Positions 48,626-64,000 of a stretch of DNA of 64,000 nucleotides are shown one piece after another; the stretch's first letter is position 1, and every line of letters begins with the position of its first letter. This DNA comes from Escherichia coli (lineage in GTDB: Bacteria; Pseudomonadota; Gammaproteobacteria; Enterobacterales; Enterobacteriaceae): the NCBI RefSeq assembly GCF_024298765.1, contig NZ_CP101210.1; one strand, written 5' to 3'. A program made the translations under genes and the position numbers. The notes under the pieces were generated by a model. The model was not told the DNA's origin, made no database searches, and was given only the letters and a program-made list of their open reading frames with translations.

Positions 48626-49935
48626 GTGTTCCCCGCGCCAGCGGGGATAAACCGCATTGAAAACATTGCCTTTATTTTATTTTTTGGTGTTCCCCGCGCC
48701 AGCGGGGATAAACCGGTGCCGCCGCTGGGCACTTCCTTCCCGTGAGTGTGTTCCCCGCGCCAGCGGGGATAAACCGCCCTGATAGCGTCCAGTTGAATGC
48801 GCGCCCGCGTGTTCCCCGCGCCAGCGGGGATAAACCGGCAGGCACGGGCAATATCAGACTCGGTCAAAGGTGTTCCCCGCGCCAGCGGGGATAAACCGCT
48901 CGGTTGTTTTCATATTACCGGCCTGCCACTGTGTTCCCCGCGCCAGCGGGGATAAACCGACAATATCCCGGACCGGGCGCTGATTTAGTCAGTGTTCCCC
49001 GCGCCAGCGGGGATAAACCGCGGACGGTGGGAATATAGAAAATCCGTCCACCGTGTTCCCCGCGCCAGCGGGGATAAACCGTTATACTCTTTTCATCGAC
49101 TAAGGAGGGGAGGGTGTTCCCCGCGCCAGCGGGGATAAACCGCAATAACGCAGCATCCAGGAAGCTGTTTCCGCGTGTTCCCCGCGCCAGCGGGGATAAA
49201 CCGCGATCGGTGAAGAGGTCCGCGAAATACTCACTGTGTTCCCCGCGCCAGCGGGGATAAACCGGCGATAGTTGATTCAGCCGCGCCAGCGAATGTGTGT
49301 TCCCCGCGCCAGCGGGGATAAACCGGGGCCGCCGCGAATTTACACACGATTCAATACGTGTTCCCCGCGCCAGCGGGGATAAACCGAACTGGTGCGCGAC
49401 GGCTGGCTAACAAAACGAGTGTTCCCCGCGCCAGCGGGGATAAACCGCGTGGCTGCGCTGGCCGTTGCAGCAGTTTGATGTGTTCCCCGCGCCAGCGGGG
49501 ATAAACCGCGTAAACGCCCCGTCGCCATTAATTTCGGGGTGTGTTCCCCGCGCCAGCGGGGATAAACCGTGGGATGAGCAAATAACGTCGTTTCCTAGAA
49601 AGTGTTCCCCGCGCCAGCGGGGATAAACCGCCGCCGTGCCAGTGATCCTCATACGGCCTGTTGTGTTCCCCGCGCCAGCGGGGATAAACCGAAATTAAGA
49701 ACGGCGTAAACGACGGCAGCATGGTGTTCCCCGCGCCAGCGGGGATAAACCGGTGATGATTCAGAGCAGACATTAGCCCGCGCTGTGTTCCCCGCGCCAG
49801 CGGGGATAAACCGGGTAAAAACACGGTCTGAACCGACATTCATGTGTGTTCCCCGCGTCAGCGGGGATAAACCGGACGCACTGGATGCGATGATGGATAT
49901 CACTTAGAATTCCCCGCCCCTGCGGTAGAACTCCC
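48626..49935 (+). CRISPR. Type I-E CRISPR array, 22 repeats (21 intact and a degenerate terminal repeat) and 21 spacers of 32 nt (cas-proximal array)
   Basis: 29-nt repeat GTGTTCCCCGCGCCAGCGGGGATAAACCG at strict 61-nt period from 48626 to 49846. The repeat at 49846 has a CGTCA variant; the terminal repeat at 49907-49935 is GAATTCCCCGCCCCTGCGGTAGAACTCCC. Confidence 0.97.
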
Positions 49936-57319: not shown

Positions 57320-58681
<1,362 letters not shown>

Positions 58682-58820: not shown

Positions 58821-59960
58821 ATGAGCGCGGGAAGCCCAAAATTCACCGTTCGCCGCATTGCGGCTTTGTCACTGGTTTCGCTATGGCTGGCAGGCTGTTC
58901 TGACACTTCAAATCCACCGGCACCGGTCAGCTCCGTTAATGGCAATGCGCCTGCAAATACCAATTCTGGTATGTTGATTACGCCGCCGCCGAAAATGGGG
59001 ACGACGTCTACAGCGCAGCAACCGCAAATTCAGCCGGTACAGCAGCCACAAATTCAGGCTACTCAACAACCGCAAATCCAGCCAGTACAGCCAGTAGCTC
59101 AGCAGCCGGTACAGATGGAAAACGGACGCATCGTCTACAACCGTCAGTATGGGAACATTCCGAAAGGCAGTTATAGCGGCAGTACCTATACCGTGAAAAA
59201 AGGCGACACACTTTTCTATATCGCCTGGATTACTGGCAACGATTTCCGTGACCTTGCTCAGCGCAACAATATTCAGGCACCATATGCGCTGAACGTCGGT
59301 CAGACCTTACAGGTGGGTAATGCTTCCGGTACGCCAATCACTGGCGGAAATGCCATTACCCAGGCCGACGCAGCAGAGCAAGGAGTTGTGATCAAGCCTG
59401 CACAAAATTCCACCGTTGCTGTTGCGTCGCAACCGACAATTACGTATTCTGAGTCTTCGGGTGAACAGAGTGCTAACAAAATGTTGCCGAACAACAAGCC
59501 AACTGCGACCACGGTCACAGCGCCTGTAACGGTACCAACAGCAAGCACAACCGAGCCGACTGTCAGCAGTACATCAACCAGTACGCCTATCTCCACCTGG
59601 CGCTGGCCGACTGAGGGCAAAGTGATCGAAACCTTTGGCGCTTCTGAGGGGGGCAACAAGGGGATTGATATCGCAGGCAGCAAAGGACAGGCAATTATCG
59701 CGACCGCAGATGGCCGCGTTGTTTATGCCGGTAACGCGCTGCGCGGCTACGGTAATCTGATTATCATCAAACATAATGATGATTACCTGAGTGCCTACGC
59801 CCATAACGACACAATGCTGGTCCGGGAACAACAAGAAGTGAAGGCGGGGCAAAAAATAGCAACCATGGGTAGCACCGGAACCAGTTCAACACGCTTGCAT
59901 TTTGAAATTCGTTACAAGGGGAAATCCGTAAACCCGCTGCGTTATTTGCCGCAGCGATAA
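58821..59960 (+). CDS. nlpD: Murein hydrolase activator lipoprotein NlpD (LysM plus M23 peptidase domain)
   Basis: 379-aa ORF; lipobox LAGCS, Q/P-rich repeats, LysM and M23 domains. Confidence 0.92.
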
Positions 59961-60022: not shown

Positions 60023-61015
60023 ATGAGTCAGAATACGCTGAAAGTTCATGATTTAAATGAAGATGCGGAATTTGATGAGAACGGAGTTGAGGTTTTTGAC
60101 GAAAAGGCCTTAGTAGAAGAGGAACCCAGTGATAACGATTTGGCCGAAGAGGAACTGTTATCGCAGGGAGCCACACAGCGTGTGCTGGACGCGACTCAGC
60201 TTTACCTTGGTGAGATTGGTTATTCACCACTGTTAACGGCCGAAGAAGAAGTTTATTTTGCGCGTCGCGCACTGCGTGGAGATGTCGCCTCTCGCCGCCG
60301 GATGATCGAGAGTAACTTGCGTCTGGTGGTAAAAATTGCCCGCCGTTATGGCAATCGTGGTCTGGCGTTGCTGGACCTGATCGAAGAGGGCAACCTGGGG
60401 CTGATCCGCGCGGTAGAGAAGTTTGACCCGGAACGTGGTTTCCGCTTCTCAACATACGCAACCTGGTGGATTCGCCAGACGATCGAACGGGCGATTATGA
60501 ACCAAACCCGTACTATTCGTTTGCCGATTCACATCGTAAAGGAGCTGAACGTTTACCTGCGAACCGCACGCGAGTTGTCCCATAAACTGGACCACGAACC
60601 AAGTGCGGAAGAGATCGCAGAGCAACTGGATAAGCCAGTTGATGACGTCAGCCGTATGCTTCGTCTTAACGAGCGCATTACCTCGGTAGACACCCCGCTG
60701 GGTGGTGATTCCGAAAAAGCGTTGCTGGACATCCTGGCCGATGAAAAAGAGAACGGTCCGGAAGATACCACGCAAGATGACGATATGAAGCAGAGCATCG
60801 TCAAATGGCTGTTCGAGCTGAACGCCAAACAGCGTGAAGTACTGGCACGTCGATTCGGTTTGCTGGGGTACGAAGCGGCAACACTGGAAGATGTAGGTCG
60901 TGAAATTGGCCTCACCCGTGAACGTGTTCGCCAGATTCAGGTTGAAGGCCTGCGCCGTTTGCGCGAAATCCTGCAAACGCAGGGGCTGAATATCGAAGCG
61001 CTGTTCCGCGAATAA
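60023..61015 (+). CDS. rpoS: RNA polymerase sigma factor RpoS (sigma-38)
   Basis: Track ORF 59987-61015 trimmed to the ATG at 60023 ([17 protein letters not shown], 330 aa); no internal stop. Confidence 0.96.
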
Positions 61016-61030
61016 GTAAGCATCTGTCAG

Positions 61031-61067
61031 AAAGGCCAGTCTCTTATGAGGCTGGCCTTTTTCTTTT
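61031..61067 (+). terminator. rpoS Rho-independent terminator
   Basis: AAAGGCCAGTC-TCTTATGAG-GCTGGCCTTT hairpin followed by a T-run. Confidence 0.8.
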
Positions 61068-61135
61068 GTATGGGGAGTTGGTATGTTTCGTCGCCTGGAT
61101 AAGACACGTCAGCGTCCCATCCGGCAATCAACATC

Positions 61136-61576
61136 CTATTTGCTCATCATCTTGCGCACCAGCTGCATAAACAGCTCCTGCTCTTCTCCACTCAAACGCC
61201 CCAAAAATTCCTCATCCACACTGTCACCTATCGGTATCGCCGCAGCAAGTATCTTTTCGCCTTCGGCAGTCAGCCAGACAAAGCGTCGCCGCTTGTCAGC
61301 GGCGTCATGTTCACGTCTGACTAAGCCACGATTTTCCATTCTTGCCAACATTTCTGCCAGCGTTGCTTTGGTGCTGACTGCTGCTTCTATCAGTGCCACC
61401 TGTTCGATACCAGGCTTATCAGCAATGGCGCGCATCACCGCGTACTGTGGTTTGGTCAGGTCAGGTAACTCGTGCTGCCAGCGAGCTGTATGCTGCTGAA
61501 AAAGCTGTCGTAACTGATGGAACGCTTTATTTCGTAACGCCATGTAAACTCCGGGCAAACTATCTGCCGCTATCAT
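61136..61576 (-). CDS. MarR/SlyA-family transcriptional regulator (rpoS-mutS variable region)
   Basis: 146-aa ORF with a winged-helix MarR-like core; divergent from the downstream decarboxylase genes. Confidence 0.8.
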   Translation of the reverse strand: MIAADSLPGVYMALRNKAFHQLRQLFQQHTARWQHELPDLTKPQYAVMRAIADKPGIEQVALIEAAVSTKATLAEMLARMENRGLVRREHDAADKRRRFVWLTAEGEKILAAAIPIGDSVDEEFLGRLSGEEQELFMQLVRKMMSK

Positions 61577-61689
61577 AGCGGTTTTTCAGTGACGAAGAAG
61601 ATGTTGTTACTTTTCAGCGCTTGCCGCGATGAAAACAGAGGCGTATTTTAATAATAACGTTCGTATACGAACAATTTAGAGAGTAAGCA

Positions 61690-62283
61690 ATGAAACTGAT
61701 CGTCGGGATGACAGGGGCTACCGGTGCGCCTCTTGGTGTGGCATTACTGCAAGCGCTGCGGGAGATGCCGAATGTCGAGACTCATCTGGTGATGTCGACG
61801 TGGGCGAAAACCACCATTGAACTGGAAACGCCTTACAGCGCCCGCGATGTTGCTGCCCTCGCAGACTTCAGCCATAACCCGGCGGATCAGGCGGCGACCA
61901 TCTCCTCAGGTTCCTTTCGTACCGACGGCATGATCGTTATTCCGTGCAGTATGAAAACGCTCGCCGGTATCCGTGCCGGTTACGCCGATGGCCTGGTGGG
62001 GCGCGCGGCGGACGTCGTGCTCAAAGAAGGCCGCAAACTAGTGCTGGTGCCGCGTGAAATGCCGCTTAGCACCATCCATCTCGAAAATATGCTCGCACTT
62101 TCACGCATGGGCGTGGCGATGGTGCCGCCGATGCCTGCCTTTTATAACCATCCCGAAACGGTAGATGACATTGTCCACCACGTGGTAGCCCGCGTGCTGG
62201 ATCAATTTGGCCTCGAACATCCCCACGCCAGGCGCTGGCAAGGATTGCCGCAGGTCCGGAATTTTTCTCAGGAGAATGAATAA
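61690..62283 (+). CDS. UbiX/Pad1-family flavin prenyltransferase (hydroxyarylic acid decarboxylase subunit B-like)
   Basis: 197-aa ORF; MKLIVGMTGATGA N-terminus typical of UbiX. Confidence 0.85.
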   Translation: MKLIVGMTGATGAPLGVALLQALREMPNVETHLVMSTWAKTTIELETPYSARDVAALADFSHNPADQAATISSGSFRTDGMIVIPCSMKTLAGIRAGYADGLVGRAADVVLKEGRKLVLVPREMPLSTIHLENMLALSRMGVAMVPPMPAFYNHPETVDDIVHHVVARVLDQFGLEHPHARRWQGLPQVRNFSQENE

Positions 62284-63710
62284 TGGCATTTGATGATTTA
62301 CGCAGCTTTTTACAGGCGCTTGATGACCACGGCCAGTTACTGAAAATCAGCGAAGAGGTGAACGCGGAACCGGATCTGGCAGCCGCAGCCAACGCCACCG
62401 GGCGTATCGGCGACGGCGCGCCCGCGCTTTGGTTTGATAATATTCGCGGCTTTATCGATGCCCGCGTGGCAATGAACACCATCGGTTCCTGGCAGAACCA
62501 CGCGATTTCCCTCGGCCTGCCGCCAAACACCCCGGTTAAAAAACAGATTGATGAGTTTATCCGCCGCTGGGATAACTTCCCCATTGCCCCGGAGCGCCGC
62601 GCCAATCCAGCCTGGGCGCAGAACACCGTCGATGGCGACGAGATCAACCTGTTCGATATTCTGCCACTGTTTCGTTTAAACGACGGTGATGGCGGTTTCT
62701 ATCTCGACAAAGCGTGCGTGGTTTCCCGCGATCCGCTTGATCCGGATAACTTCGGCAAGCAGAACGTCGGCATCTACCGTATGGAAGTGAAGGGTAAGCG
62801 TAAGCTCGGTCTGCAACCGGTGCCGATGCACGATATCGCCCTGCATCTGCATAAAGCGGAAGAGCGCGGTGAAGATCTGCCGATTGCAATCACGCTCGGT
62901 AACGATCCGATCATCACCCTGATGGGGGCCACGCCGCTGAAATACGATCAGTCTGAGTATGAAATGGCAGGCGCGCTGCGCGAAAGCCCGTACCCGATCG
63001 CCACCGCCCCGCTGACCGGTTTTGATGTGCCGTGGGGCTCGGAAGTGATCCTCGAAGGGGTCATCGAAAGCCGTAAACGCGAAATCGAAGGGCCGTTCGG
63101 TGAGTTTACCGGGCACTACTCCGGCGGGCGTAATATGACCGTCGTGCGCATTGATAAAGTCTCTTATCGCAGCAAACCCATTTTTGAATCGCTCTATCTC
63201 GGGATGCCGTGGACGGAAATCGACTACCTGATGGGGCCAGCCACCTGCGTGCCGCTGTATCAGCAACTGAAAGCCGAGTTCCCGGAAGTGCAGGCGGTGA
63301 ACGCCATGTACACCCACGGCCTTCTGGCGATTATCTCCACCAAAAAACGCTACGGCGGCTTTGCCCGCGCGGTGGGCCTGCGTGCGATGACCACGCCGCA
63401 CGGTCTGGGCTACGTGAAGATGGTGATTATGGTCGATGAAGACGTTGATCCGTTCAACCTGCCGCAGGTGATGTGGGCGCTCTCCTCGAAAGTGAACCCG
63501 GCAGGGGATTTGGTGCAGTTGCCGAATATGTCCGTGCTGGAACTCGACCCCGGCTCAAGCCCGGCCGGTATCACCGACAAGCTGATTATCGACGCCACCA
63601 CGCCTGTCGCTCCGGACAACCGTGGTCACTACAGCCAGCCGGTGGTGGATTTACCGGAAACCAAAGCCTGGGCTGAAAAACTGACCGCTATGCTGGCCGC
63701 ACGTCAATAA
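62283..63710 (+). CDS. UbiD-family reversible decarboxylase (hydroxyarylic acid decarboxylase subunit C-like)
   Basis: 475-aa ORF whose start overlaps the preceding stop. Confidence 0.85.
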   Translation: MAFDDLRSFLQALDDHGQLLKISEEVNAEPDLAAAANATGRIGDGAPALWFDNIRGFIDARVAMNTIGSWQNHAISLGLPPNTPVKKQIDEFIRRWDNFPIAPERRANPAWAQNTVDGDEINLFDILPLFRLNDGDGGFYLDKACVVSRDPLDPDNFGKQNVGIYRMEVKGKRKLGLQPVPMHDIALHLHKAEERGEDLPIAITLGNDPIITLMGATPLKYDQSEYEMAGALRESPYPIATAPLTGFDVPWGSEVILEGVIESRKREIEGPFGEFTGHYSGGRNMTVVRIDKVSYRSKPIFESLYLGMPWTEIDYLMGPATCVPLYQQLKAEFPEVQAVNAMYTHGLLAIISTKKRYGGFARAVGLRAMTTPHGLGYVKMVIMVDEDVDPFNLPQVMWALSSKVNPAGDLVQLPNMSVLELDPGSSPAGITDKLIIDATTPVAPDNRGHYSQPVVDLPETKAWAEKLTAMLAARQ

Positions 63711-63720
63711 GGAGAACAAG

Positions 63721-63957
63721 ATGATTTGTCCACGTTGTGCCGATGAACAGATTGAAGTGATGGCGAAATCGCCGGTAAAAGATGTCTGGATGGTCTACCA
63801 GTGCCAGCATTGCCTCTATACCTGGCGCGATACCGAACCGCTACGCCGCACCAGCCGCGAACATTATCCCGAAGCGTTCCGCATGACGCAGAAAGATATT
63901 GATGACGCGCCGATGGTGCCGAGCATCCCGCCGCTGCTGGCGGAAGGTAAGCGCTAA
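63721..63957 (+). CDS. Small zinc-ribbon subunit of the UbiD-type decarboxylase (subunit D-like)
   Basis: 78-aa ORF with CPRC...CQHC cysteine pairs. Confidence 0.75.
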   Translation: MICPRCADEQIEVMAKSPVKDVWMVYQCQHCLYTWRDTEPLRRTSREHYPEAFRMTQKDIDDAPMVPSIPPLLAEGKR

Positions 63958-63960
63958 ATA

Positions 63961-63990
63961 AAAGGTCCGATGCCCATCGGACCTTTTATT
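63961..63990 (+). terminator. Rho-independent terminator after the decarboxylase operon
   Basis: GGTCCGATG-CC-CATCGGACC hairpin followed by TTTTATT. Confidence 0.75.
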
Positions 63991-64000
63991 AAGGTCAAAT

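Follow-up and report, generated by a model that had tools for sequence, protein, structure and literature searches.

A probable HosA-controlled hydroxyarylic acid decarboxylase operon beside rpoS in Escherichia coli

The segment that follows rpoS in the E. coli DNA analyzed here, a stretch of 64,000 nucleotides (hereafter the window), raises the question of what its four genes, missing in K-12, do for the strain, and of whether they were acquired as a genomic island or are what K-12 has lost. We consider it very probable that the segment is a HosA-controlled non-oxidative hydroxyarylic acid decarboxylase operon, with the HosA/4-hydroxybenzoate (4-HBA) mechanism and the Enterobacteriaceae ancestry proposed below. 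The cassette is already known and is ordinary in E. coli, all its essentials having been published under names that include hosA/'slyA' with pad1-yclC-yclD, kpdBCD, VdcBCD and the 'HAD operon'. Gene content, protein families, catalytic and zinc motifs, the sequence, position and conservation of the operator, and genomic distribution were observed here.

Gene content and limits of the segment

The 64-kb window contains four intact reading frames downstream of the rpoS terminator, and the RefSeq annotation of a 100%-identical region in strain 104 has the same gene calls. Junctions were read by eye and by DNA alignment. The rpoS stop codon lies at 61015 and precedes the intrinsic terminator hairpin of rpoS (61029..61062, + strand), which was detected by the terminator scan (fold −25.1 kcal/mol, z = −6.2), is also present in K-12, and serves as the landmark on the left side of the variable segment. 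The right landmark is a bidirectional terminator hairpin shared by the subunit D gene and the convergent ygbN (63957..63990), folding at −21.5 kcal/mol on the + strand (z = −6.9) and −21.0 kcal/mol on the − strand (z = −6.0); the terminator scan had no entry for this hairpin because its A/T runs pair into the stem, and folding confirmed it. In K-12, the identical sequence comes after the rpoS terminator. Junction sequences place the segment missing in K-12 at 61066..63951 (approximate boundaries, ∼2.9 kb), its K-12 counterpart being about 8-11 nt (CTGTGCAC...), and its GC content is 55.7% compared to 51.3% for the whole window. In MG1655, the match to the query is limited to about 99 nt, corresponding to the two terminators, and rpoS is followed directly by ygbN, in agreement with the initial annotation, which had described the block as absent from K-12 at this position.

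The leftmost gene, hosA (61136..61543, − strand), codes for a MarR-family winged-helix repressor of 135 amino acid residues. This start is the one used by RefSeq and by the crystallized protein; a longer ORF extends to 61576. The product matches Pfam MarR PF01047 (45.5 bits, cut-off 24.6, 7e-12) and PDB 8AGA, 'Transcriptional regulator HosA', over residues 1-134 (134/135; E = 2.9e-83), and it retains F15 and D110, both of which are named in a preprint on the HosA/4-HBA structure. A MarR domain and near-identity to a characterized HosA identify the regulator, left unnamed in the initial annotation, as HosA, whose ligand (4-HBA), operator and structure are published. SlyA, as older mutS-rpoS papers call this gene, was considered and rejected: the regulator scores 28.6 bits against the NF002926 equivalog (cut-off 120), and SlyA structures match it at about 1e-7 only. 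Judged by these scores, the hosA product is a homologue of SlyA and not SlyA itself.

Divergent from hosA are three co-linear genes that form one operon, with a TAATG overlap, a 10-nt gap and a single terminator after the last gene. Subunit B (61690..62283, + strand, 197 amino acid residues) is a UbiX-family flavin prenyltransferase that scores above the curated cut-offs of NCBIfam VdcB NF041206 (311.4 bits, cut-off 290) and TIGR00421 (245 bits, cut-off 109), matches Pfam Flavoprotein at 5e-44, and aligns over all 197 residues with PDB 1SBZ, the Pad1 protein of E. coli O157:H7 (E = 3.9e-128). The BagM/BagN identities fell below their curated cut-offs, with BagM/FevK reaching 339.9 against 420 for subunit B.

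Subunit C (62283..63710, + strand, 475 amino acid residues), the start codon of which overlaps the stop codon of B, is a UbiD-family decarboxylase dependent on prenylated FMN (prFMN). It carries the N-terminal (UbiD_N), Rift (UbiD) and C-terminal (UbiD_C) Pfam domains, scores 788.5 bits against NCBIfam VdcC NF041204 (cut-off 650), and matches VdcC of PDB 7AE4 over residues 3-471 (E = 1.2e-159). E. coli UbiD structures match it at about 1e-46, and AroY and other family members at 1e-25 to 1e-27. The Glu-Arg-Glu network and the metal- and prFMN-binding motifs were found in C: it carries N161-VGIY-R166 and E269-GPFG-E274, which align with ShVdcC, and R166, E269 and E274 are taken as the Glu-Arg-Glu (ERE) triad from what is described for the family (PMC5818171). 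Compared with an O157-like copy, the gene has 67 nucleotide differences while the protein is 99% identical, which indicates purifying selection.

Subunit D (63721..63957, + strand, 78 amino acid residues), a zinc-ribbon activator of C, begins after the 10-nt gap, which contains AGGAG. It exceeds the cut-off of NCBIfam VdcD NF041205 (119.8 bits, cut-off 30) and matches PDB 7AE4 chain a (E = 4.8e-11); a hit to Pfam DUF1062 was sub-threshold (21.8 bits, cut-off 23). Its Cys3, Cys6, Cys28 and Cys31 make up two CxxC knuckles with the same numbering as the zinc ligands of ShVdcD, which binds zinc via C3, C6, C28 and C31, D being needed for activity (PMC8379154). The initial annotation had proposed a MarR gene divergent from a UbiX/UbiD/zinc-ribbon operon of the reversible 4-hydroxybenzoate/vanillate decarboxylase family. 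This assignment holds throughout: the family matches are well beyond what chance would give, B and C (matching 1SBZ and 7AE4 VdcC) belong to the UbiX and UbiD families, and all three subunits exceed the Vdc cut-offs.

The spacer between hosA and the operon contains a perfect 14-bp palindrome, GTTCGTATACGAAC (61659..61672), that matches the published HosA site and ends 17 nt upstream of the subunit B start codon (ATG). This is the sole match in the 64-kb window with two mismatches allowed, and the hosA-B spacer holds no second HosA site with up to five mismatches. Both the core and the flanks (CAGAGGCGTATTTTAATAATAAC...AATT) are the same as in the HosA binding-site oligonucleotides (PMC6261655, supplementary table S1), a site tested by EMSA and BLI in that study. 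The operator is kept with at most two mismatches in 72 of the 72 species loci with a readable hosA-operon spacer; in some other genera, the best HosA site sits 73-88 nt upstream instead. A sigma-70 scan of 60950-64000 returned no promoter. Reading the sequence, we noted a candidate sigma-70 promoter of the BCD operon, TTGCCG-17 nt-TATTTT (61621..61649, + strand), that agrees with the consensus at 8 of 12 positions and falls under the scanner threshold. Its hexamers are weak, and its position fits the published placement of the HosA site just downstream of the transcription start (bioRxiv 10.1101/2024.04.24.590444).

Distribution and age of the cassette

The block was found in 2380 complete E. 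coli genomes out of 5426, with hosts of every kind represented. Only 71 of the 5426 match the allele of the window at 99% or more, most other full-length E. coli matches having 95-97% identity. The block is followed by ygbN (D-ygbN junction) in 1592 genomes and by pphB in 806, and four rpoS-mutS layouts occur in E. coli. According to Ewers et al. 2014 (PMC4209514), the EPEC-type layout corresponds to 'pattern IV' and that of O157:H7 to 'pattern I', with the cassette abutting pphB. The window has the EPEC-type, ygbN-retaining layout and not that of O157:H7, because its last six bases (63995..64000, − strand) are the last two codons of ygbN, coding for a GntP-family transporter and cut by the window end, as annotated by RefSeq in the 100%-identical strain 104 (rpoS-hosA-BCD-ygbN...pphB-mutS). 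The link to O157:H7-type lineages made by the initial annotation is correct as to the presence of the cassette in these strains; the layout seen here is a different one. For strain typing at the rpoS-mutS region, the cassette serves as a reliable marker.

Across species, 56 of 80 species loci have rpoS and/or mutS no more than 8 kb away from the cassette. Citrobacter, Klebsiella, Enterobacter, Kluyvera, Kosakonia and Salmonella are among the genera that carry the cassette between rpoS and mutS, and most of the Enterobacteriaceae genera sampled have it in this interval. Cassette variants without subunit B occur in some genera. The pairing of HosA with its operator is conserved from Escherichia to Vibrio, including in cassettes that have lost subunit B. 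At the segment and its junctions, which the four genes fill, we found no mobility genes, integrase, transposase, tRNA gene, att site or flanking direct repeats, and an origin as a mobile element was rejected for lack of mobility genes and repeats. Because of the conserved rpoS-mutS position, the missing mobility genes and the conserved operator, the state of K-12 is most likely a loss. The cassette would then be an old resident of the rpoS-mutS interval of Enterobacteriaceae that certain E. coli lineages, including K-12, have lost or replaced. The word 'island' in the initial annotation, with its overtone of acquisition, is the one misleading term. Together with the variants lacking subunit B, the conserved position and operator usefully amend the view of a 'pathogen-specific island', though they are no new discovery.

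A further reading, to which we give a low probability, is that the patchiness stems from an ancient and maintained polymorphism, of alleles as well as of presence and absence, at the rpoS-mutS recombination hotspot and not from a gain by pathogens. This reading is prompted by the four layouts, by an allele divergence of ∼4% (relative to the O157-like copy) compared to ∼0.6% in the flank, and by the conservation of HosA with its operator. If true, losses would be adaptive trade-offs, for example sparing the ubiquinone precursor 4-hydroxybenzoate or avoiding toxic phenol. Older work on the mutS-rpoS region had probably argued much of this already, and the reading contradicts the claim of transfer from Shigella made in a 2024 preprint.

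That the block is instead a horizontally acquired genomic island marking pathogenic lineages, with HosA acting mainly as a virulence or motility regulator, we regard as improbable. This view is implied by the old 'slyA' label and by the claim of transfer from Shigella, the preprint arguing for horizontal acquisition, and it could draw on the absence of the block from K-12 and its presence in EPEC and EHEC, on the elevated GC content of the segment, on a divergence between strains ∼7 times that of the flank, and on reported effects of HosA on fliC expression and motility in EPEC. It is opposed by the lack of mobility genes, tRNA gene and direct repeats noted above, by the occurrence of the cassette in genomes from all kinds of hosts, and by a score far below the SlyA equivalog cut-off. 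An island would be expected to occur patchily, and at differing positions, in related species, which is not what the 56 loci near rpoS and/or mutS reveal, the rpoS-mutS position being shared across genera. The reported link to EPEC motility means that the HosA regulon may be wider than this operon.

Proposed mechanism and substrate

For the ligand, the repression, the cofactor chemistry, the substrates and the part played by D, we rely on published work on proteins that are near-identical or homologous. HosA of UMN026 releases DNA upon binding 4-HBA, with a Kd of 4.7 µM (PMC6261655), and, in the summary of Roy & Ranjan 2016 given in bioRxiv 10.1101/2024.04.24.590444, HosA represses the operon and itself while 4-HBA induces. 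By analogy, DNA binding by HosA of this strain should be relieved by 4-HBA. We propose that a MarR-type HosA dimer on the palindrome would block transcription of BCD, and reportedly of hosA too, until 4-hydroxybenzoate entering the cell binds HosA and causes release of the DNA. UbiX-type subunit B would then prenylate reduced FMN to prFMN, with which a UbiD-type hexamer of C would reversibly decarboxylate 4-hydroxybenzoate to phenol and vanillate to guaiacol, while the zinc-ribbon subunit D would bind C and keep its Glu-Arg-Glu catalytic loops active. Reversible decarboxylation of 4-hydroxybenzoate/vanillate that depends on prFMN and on D is described for the Sedimentibacter hydroxybenzoicus and Bacillus subtilis enzymes (PMC8379154). 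For the E. coli enzyme, the substrate range is an extrapolation from such relatives, since the solved VdcCD comes from a Firmicute.

On this basis, the strain is predicted to turn 4-hydroxybenzoate, which occurs as a plant phenolic and arises from the breakdown of parabens, into phenol, a conversion of relevance to phenol production in the gut and to phenolic-acid tolerance. We infer a physiological role in relief from phenolic-acid stress or in phenol formation in the gut. Phenol itself is toxic. HosA and its operator are already in use as a 4-HBA biosensor.

Substrate ranges within the UbiD family overlap and the reactions are reversible, and AroY and other members do match subunit C, so that the true substrate could be another aromatic acid (protocatechuate, as for AroY, or gallate, as for LpdC) or the enzyme could work physiologically as a phenol carboxylase. 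We hold this to be very improbable, given that, among solved relatives, the 4-HBA/vanillate enzyme VdcC is nearest, with an E-value lead of more than 100 orders of magnitude, that D is of the VdcD and not the LpdD type, two proteins without sequence similarity (PMC8379154), and that the cognate regulator senses 4-HBA. Practically no weight attaches to the idea that B and C serve ubiquinone biosynthesis as a spare UbiX/UbiD pair, with prenylated 4-hydroxybenzoate and not free phenolic acids as the substrate: although both proteins belong to these superfamilies, E. coli UbiD structures match C and the inducer is also the ubiquinone ring precursor, C passes the VdcC cut-off and falls far short of the housekeeping UbiD equivalog for 4-hydroxy-3-polyprenylbenzoate decarboxylase (NF008175, 173.5 bits, cut-off 788), the cassette has a dedicated VdcD subunit, it is dispensable, being missing from K-12 and from about one in two E. 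coli genomes, and the operon is reportedly repressed until free 4-HBA is present. Decarboxylation of free hydroxyarylic acids thus remains our preferred assignment.

Comparison with known systems

The nearest known system is the E. coli HosA/'HAD' operon of UMN026, EPEC E2348/69 and O157:H7 (pad1-yclC-yclD), also named kpdR-kpdBCD or slyA-kpdBCD in mutS-rpoS typing papers, which has the same four genes in the same order and orientation at the same site beside rpoS. HosA is near-identical to 8AGA, B is near-identical to Pad1 (1SBZ), and the operator core and flanks are identical, whereas the DNA of this allele is ∼4% diverged from the O157-like copy. The three-subunit architecture is common to VdcBCD/ShdBCD/BsdBCD of S. 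hydroxybenzoicus, B. subtilis and Streptomyces sp. D7, for which 7AE4, 7AE5 and 7AE7 are VdcCD structures. C aligns end to end with its ShVdcCD counterpart (1e-159) and keeps the ERE motif, and D has the four zinc cysteines at identical positions and keeps R36 and E39, which belong to the C:D salt bridges, but position 12 of D is a Glu where ShVdcD has a salt-bridge Arg. Unlike these systems, the cassette resides in a Gram-negative enteric host and is under the control of HosA and a palindromic operator. With the housekeeping UbiX/UbiD of ubiquinone biosynthesis, it has in common the two superfamilies and the prFMN cofactor chemistry; it differs from this pair by its extra zinc-ribbon subunit, by being dispensable and inducible, and by a subunit C that scores below the UbiD equivalog. 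SlyA of Salmonella and E. coli shares with HosA the MarR winged-helix fold.

Gene content and protein identities

Downstream of pcm (58055-58681), nlpD (58821-59960) and rpoS (60023-61015), all on the plus strand, a hairpin with a T-run 3′ of rpoS (61029-61062; −25.1 kcal/mol, z = −6.2) precedes a minus-strand gene coding for a 135-aa MarR-family regulator (61136-61543). A 146-nt spacer separates this gene from three closely packed plus-strand genes coding for UbiX-type subunit B (61690-62283, 197 aa), UbiD-type subunit C (62283-63710, 475 aa), whose ATG overlaps the stop codon of B (TAATG), and zinc-ribbon subunit D (63721-63957, 78 aa), with AGGAG ahead of its start. A symmetric hairpin follows (63957-63990; −21.5 and −21.0 kcal/mol on the two strands), and the window closes with the last six bases of the convergent gene ygbN. 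Because the mapped genes, hairpins and ygbN end agree, the initial annotation, which had placed these four genes at 61136-63990, was correct in both coordinates and gene description. An alternative hosA start 11 codons further upstream (to 61576) is possible; RefSeq and the crystallized protein begin at 61543. A 138-aa plus-strand ORF antisense to hosA (61083-61499) was dismissed as an unsupported shadow ORF.

Pfam matches were MarR for the regulator, Flavoprotein for B, and UbiD_N, UbiD and UbiD_C for C. The curated NCBIfam models, more specific here, assigned B to VdcB (311.4 bits, cut-off 290), C to VdcC (788.5 bits, cut-off 650) and D to VdcD (119.8 bits, cut-off 30). C contains N161-VGIY-R166 and E269-GPFG-E274, which we take to be the UbiD-family Glu-Arg-Glu (ERE) network and metal-site motif. 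Models for housekeeping UbiD (C, 173.5 bits, cut-off 788), SlyA (regulator, 28.6 bits, cut-off 120) and the bagremycin/ferroverdin proteins BagM/FevK (B, 339.9 bits, cut-off 420) and BagN/FevL (C, 116.4 bits, cut-off 1000) were rejected. Among solved structures, the regulator matched "Transcriptional regulator HosA" (8AGA and six more entries; 2.9e-83, 134 residues), B matched E. coli O157:H7 Pad1 over its full length (1SBZ; 3.9e-128), and C (residues 3-471; 1.2e-159) and D (4.8e-11) matched the VdcC and small chains of 7AE4. The regulator, left unnamed in the initial annotation, is HosA. Cysteines of D occupy positions 3, 6, 28 and 31, exactly those of the four zinc ligands of Sedimentibacter hydroxybenzoicus VdcD (PMC8379154); of the residues forming C:D salt bridges in that protein, R36 and E39 are retained, whereas position 12 has Glu in place of Arg.

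The HosA operator and proposed mechanism

The hosA-B spacer contains a perfect 14-bp palindrome, GTTCGTATACGAAC (61659-61672), that ends 17 nt ahead of the start codon of B and is the sole match in the 64-kb window with up to two mismatches; no second operator-like site was found in this spacer at up to five mismatches. Cao et al. 2018 used oligonucleotides with the same core and flanks, CAGAGGCGTATTTTAATAATAAC...AATT, as HosA binding sites (PMC6261655, supplementary table S1); they observed binding of HosA and its release by 4-hydroxybenzoate (ITC, Kd 4.7 uM). The portion of a 2024 preprint that summarizes primary work on UMN026 reports that HosA represses its own gene and the decarboxylase operon, that 4-hydroxybenzoate induces the operon several-fold, and that transcription begins just upstream of the palindrome. 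A weak candidate promoter below the promoter-scan threshold (TTGCCG-17-TATTTT, 61621-61649) would fit this position of the palindrome.

A one-genome-per-species scan for C returned 353 relatives, of which the best 80 loci were fetched. All 72 of these with a readable spacer keep the operator, with no more than two mismatches and usually 15-19 nt ahead of the first start codon. In L005, L008, L023, L039, L063, L068 and L070, the best operator-like palindrome is farther from B, 73-88 nt upstream, and may be a second site nearer hosA.

Taking this analysis and the literature together, HosA would keep the operon off until released by 4-hydroxybenzoate. B would then supply prenylated FMN to C, a predicted hexamer decorated with D that would reversibly convert 4-hydroxybenzoate to phenol and vanillate to guaiacol. 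D would be a strictly required allosteric activator stabilizing the ERE loops, as described previously (PMC8379154). Phenol made by gut bacteria, Enterobacteriaceae among them, is predicted to stem from two enzymes, one of which is hydroxyarylic acid decarboxylase (PMC6424909).

Layout and allele divergence in E. coli

The block occurs in 2380 of 5426 complete E. coli genomes (at least 80% of the 2985-nt query). K-12 MG1655 matches the query over only ~99 nt, corresponding to the two terminators, and carries ygbN directly after rpoS; the absence from K-12 claimed initially is thus borne out, the missing segment spanning ~2.9 kb (roughly 61066-63951). Junction-specific queries detected the D-ygbN junction of the window in 1592 genomes, the D-pphB junction of O157:H7 type in 806 and the rpoS-ygbN junction of K-12 type in 1944. 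The other ~1,080 genomes presumably carry the B2-type insert of Ewers et al. 2014 (PMC4209514), who described slyA-kpdBCD followed by o454/ygbN as "pattern IV" (EPEC type) and the O157:H7 type as "pattern I". The window is of pattern IV, not pattern I; O157:H7-type lineages, initially said to carry the cassette, do carry it, in the other layout.

RpoS codon 33 (60119-60121) is Glu (GAG) in the window and in an O157-like strain and Gln (CAG) in K-12 MG1655, a further non-K-12 marker. The Gln/Pro-rich repeat of nlpD (59019-59066, QQPQIQPV units) is full length in the window and K-12; in O157-like strain 148, 48 nt are deleted in frame there. The chicken isolate E. coli strain 104 is 100% identical to the window. 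Upstream of iap (48744-49511) is a CRISPR array whose type I-E repeat is GTGTTCCCCGCGCCAGCGGGGATAAACCG; it is annotated as CRISPR in that identical genome.

Compared with the O157-like copy (L003), the whole block shows ~95.7% identity (hosA 96.3%, B 98.0%, C 95.3%, D 96.6%, rpoS-hosA spacer 86.7%) and the pcm-nlpD-rpoS flank 99.4%, so that the cassette (61016-63957) has diverged about seven times more than the flank (about 4.3% vs 0.6%). C differs at 67 nucleotides yet retains 99% protein identity and is therefore under purifying selection. Only 71 of the 5426 genomes carry the allele of the window at 99% identity or more. Such divergence and rarity are in keeping with the mutS-rpoS region being a known mosaic (PMC4209514).

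Ancestry of the cassette and comparison with known systems

In 56 of the best 80 loci, the cassette has rpoS and/or mutS within 8 kb (both genes in 43, rpoS only in 8, mutS only in 5), across Citrobacter, Pseudocitrobacter, Klebsiella, Enterobacter, Kluyvera, Leclercia, Kosakonia, Atlantibacter, Franconibacter, Mangrovibacter and Salmonella; the other 24 are mostly from non-Enterobacteriaceae (Pantoea, Erwinia, Rahnella, Vibrio) or on short contigs. Acquisition is disfavoured because the segment contains no mobility genes, its junctions no repeats, its GC content is only mildly raised (55.7% vs 51.3%) and the operator is conserved. An ancestral cassette, lost or replaced in K-12 and other lineages, explains these data most economically; the initial label of "island" suggests acquisition and is, given this synteny, misleading. 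The 2024 preprint's claim of transfer from Shigella, based on high identity and shared flanks, conflicts with an ancestral cassette, and both observations are explained equally well by descent from a common ancestor within the E. coli/Shigella species.

Variants occur in other species. The cassette is inverted, with D rather than hosA facing rpoS, in Salmonella enterica arizonae and diarizonae (L019, L020) and in Phytobacter (L022, L048, L049). Enterobacter, Leclercia, Lelliottia and the Klebsiella oxytoca group have ~2.6 kb of extra DNA between rpoS and hosA (L013, L017, L021, L023, L024, L028, L041, L044, L060). B was not detected in the cassettes of L037, L051, L053, L064, L072-L074, L077 and L081, in which hosA adjoins C and the operator is retained; the cofactor presumably comes from housekeeping UbiX. 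Records labelled Martelella alba, an alphaproteobacterium (L070), and Vibrio salinus (L079), with C 91% and 88% identical to that of the window, may reflect mislabelling, contamination or real transfer.

The initial finding is real and was correctly read. Our analysis refines it by naming the regulator HosA, pinpointing its operator, assigning the layout to the EPEC rather than the O157 type, and giving evidence for an ancestral cassette over an acquired island. Nothing essential about the system is new, its genes, structures, regulator, ligand, operator and strain distribution having all been described before.
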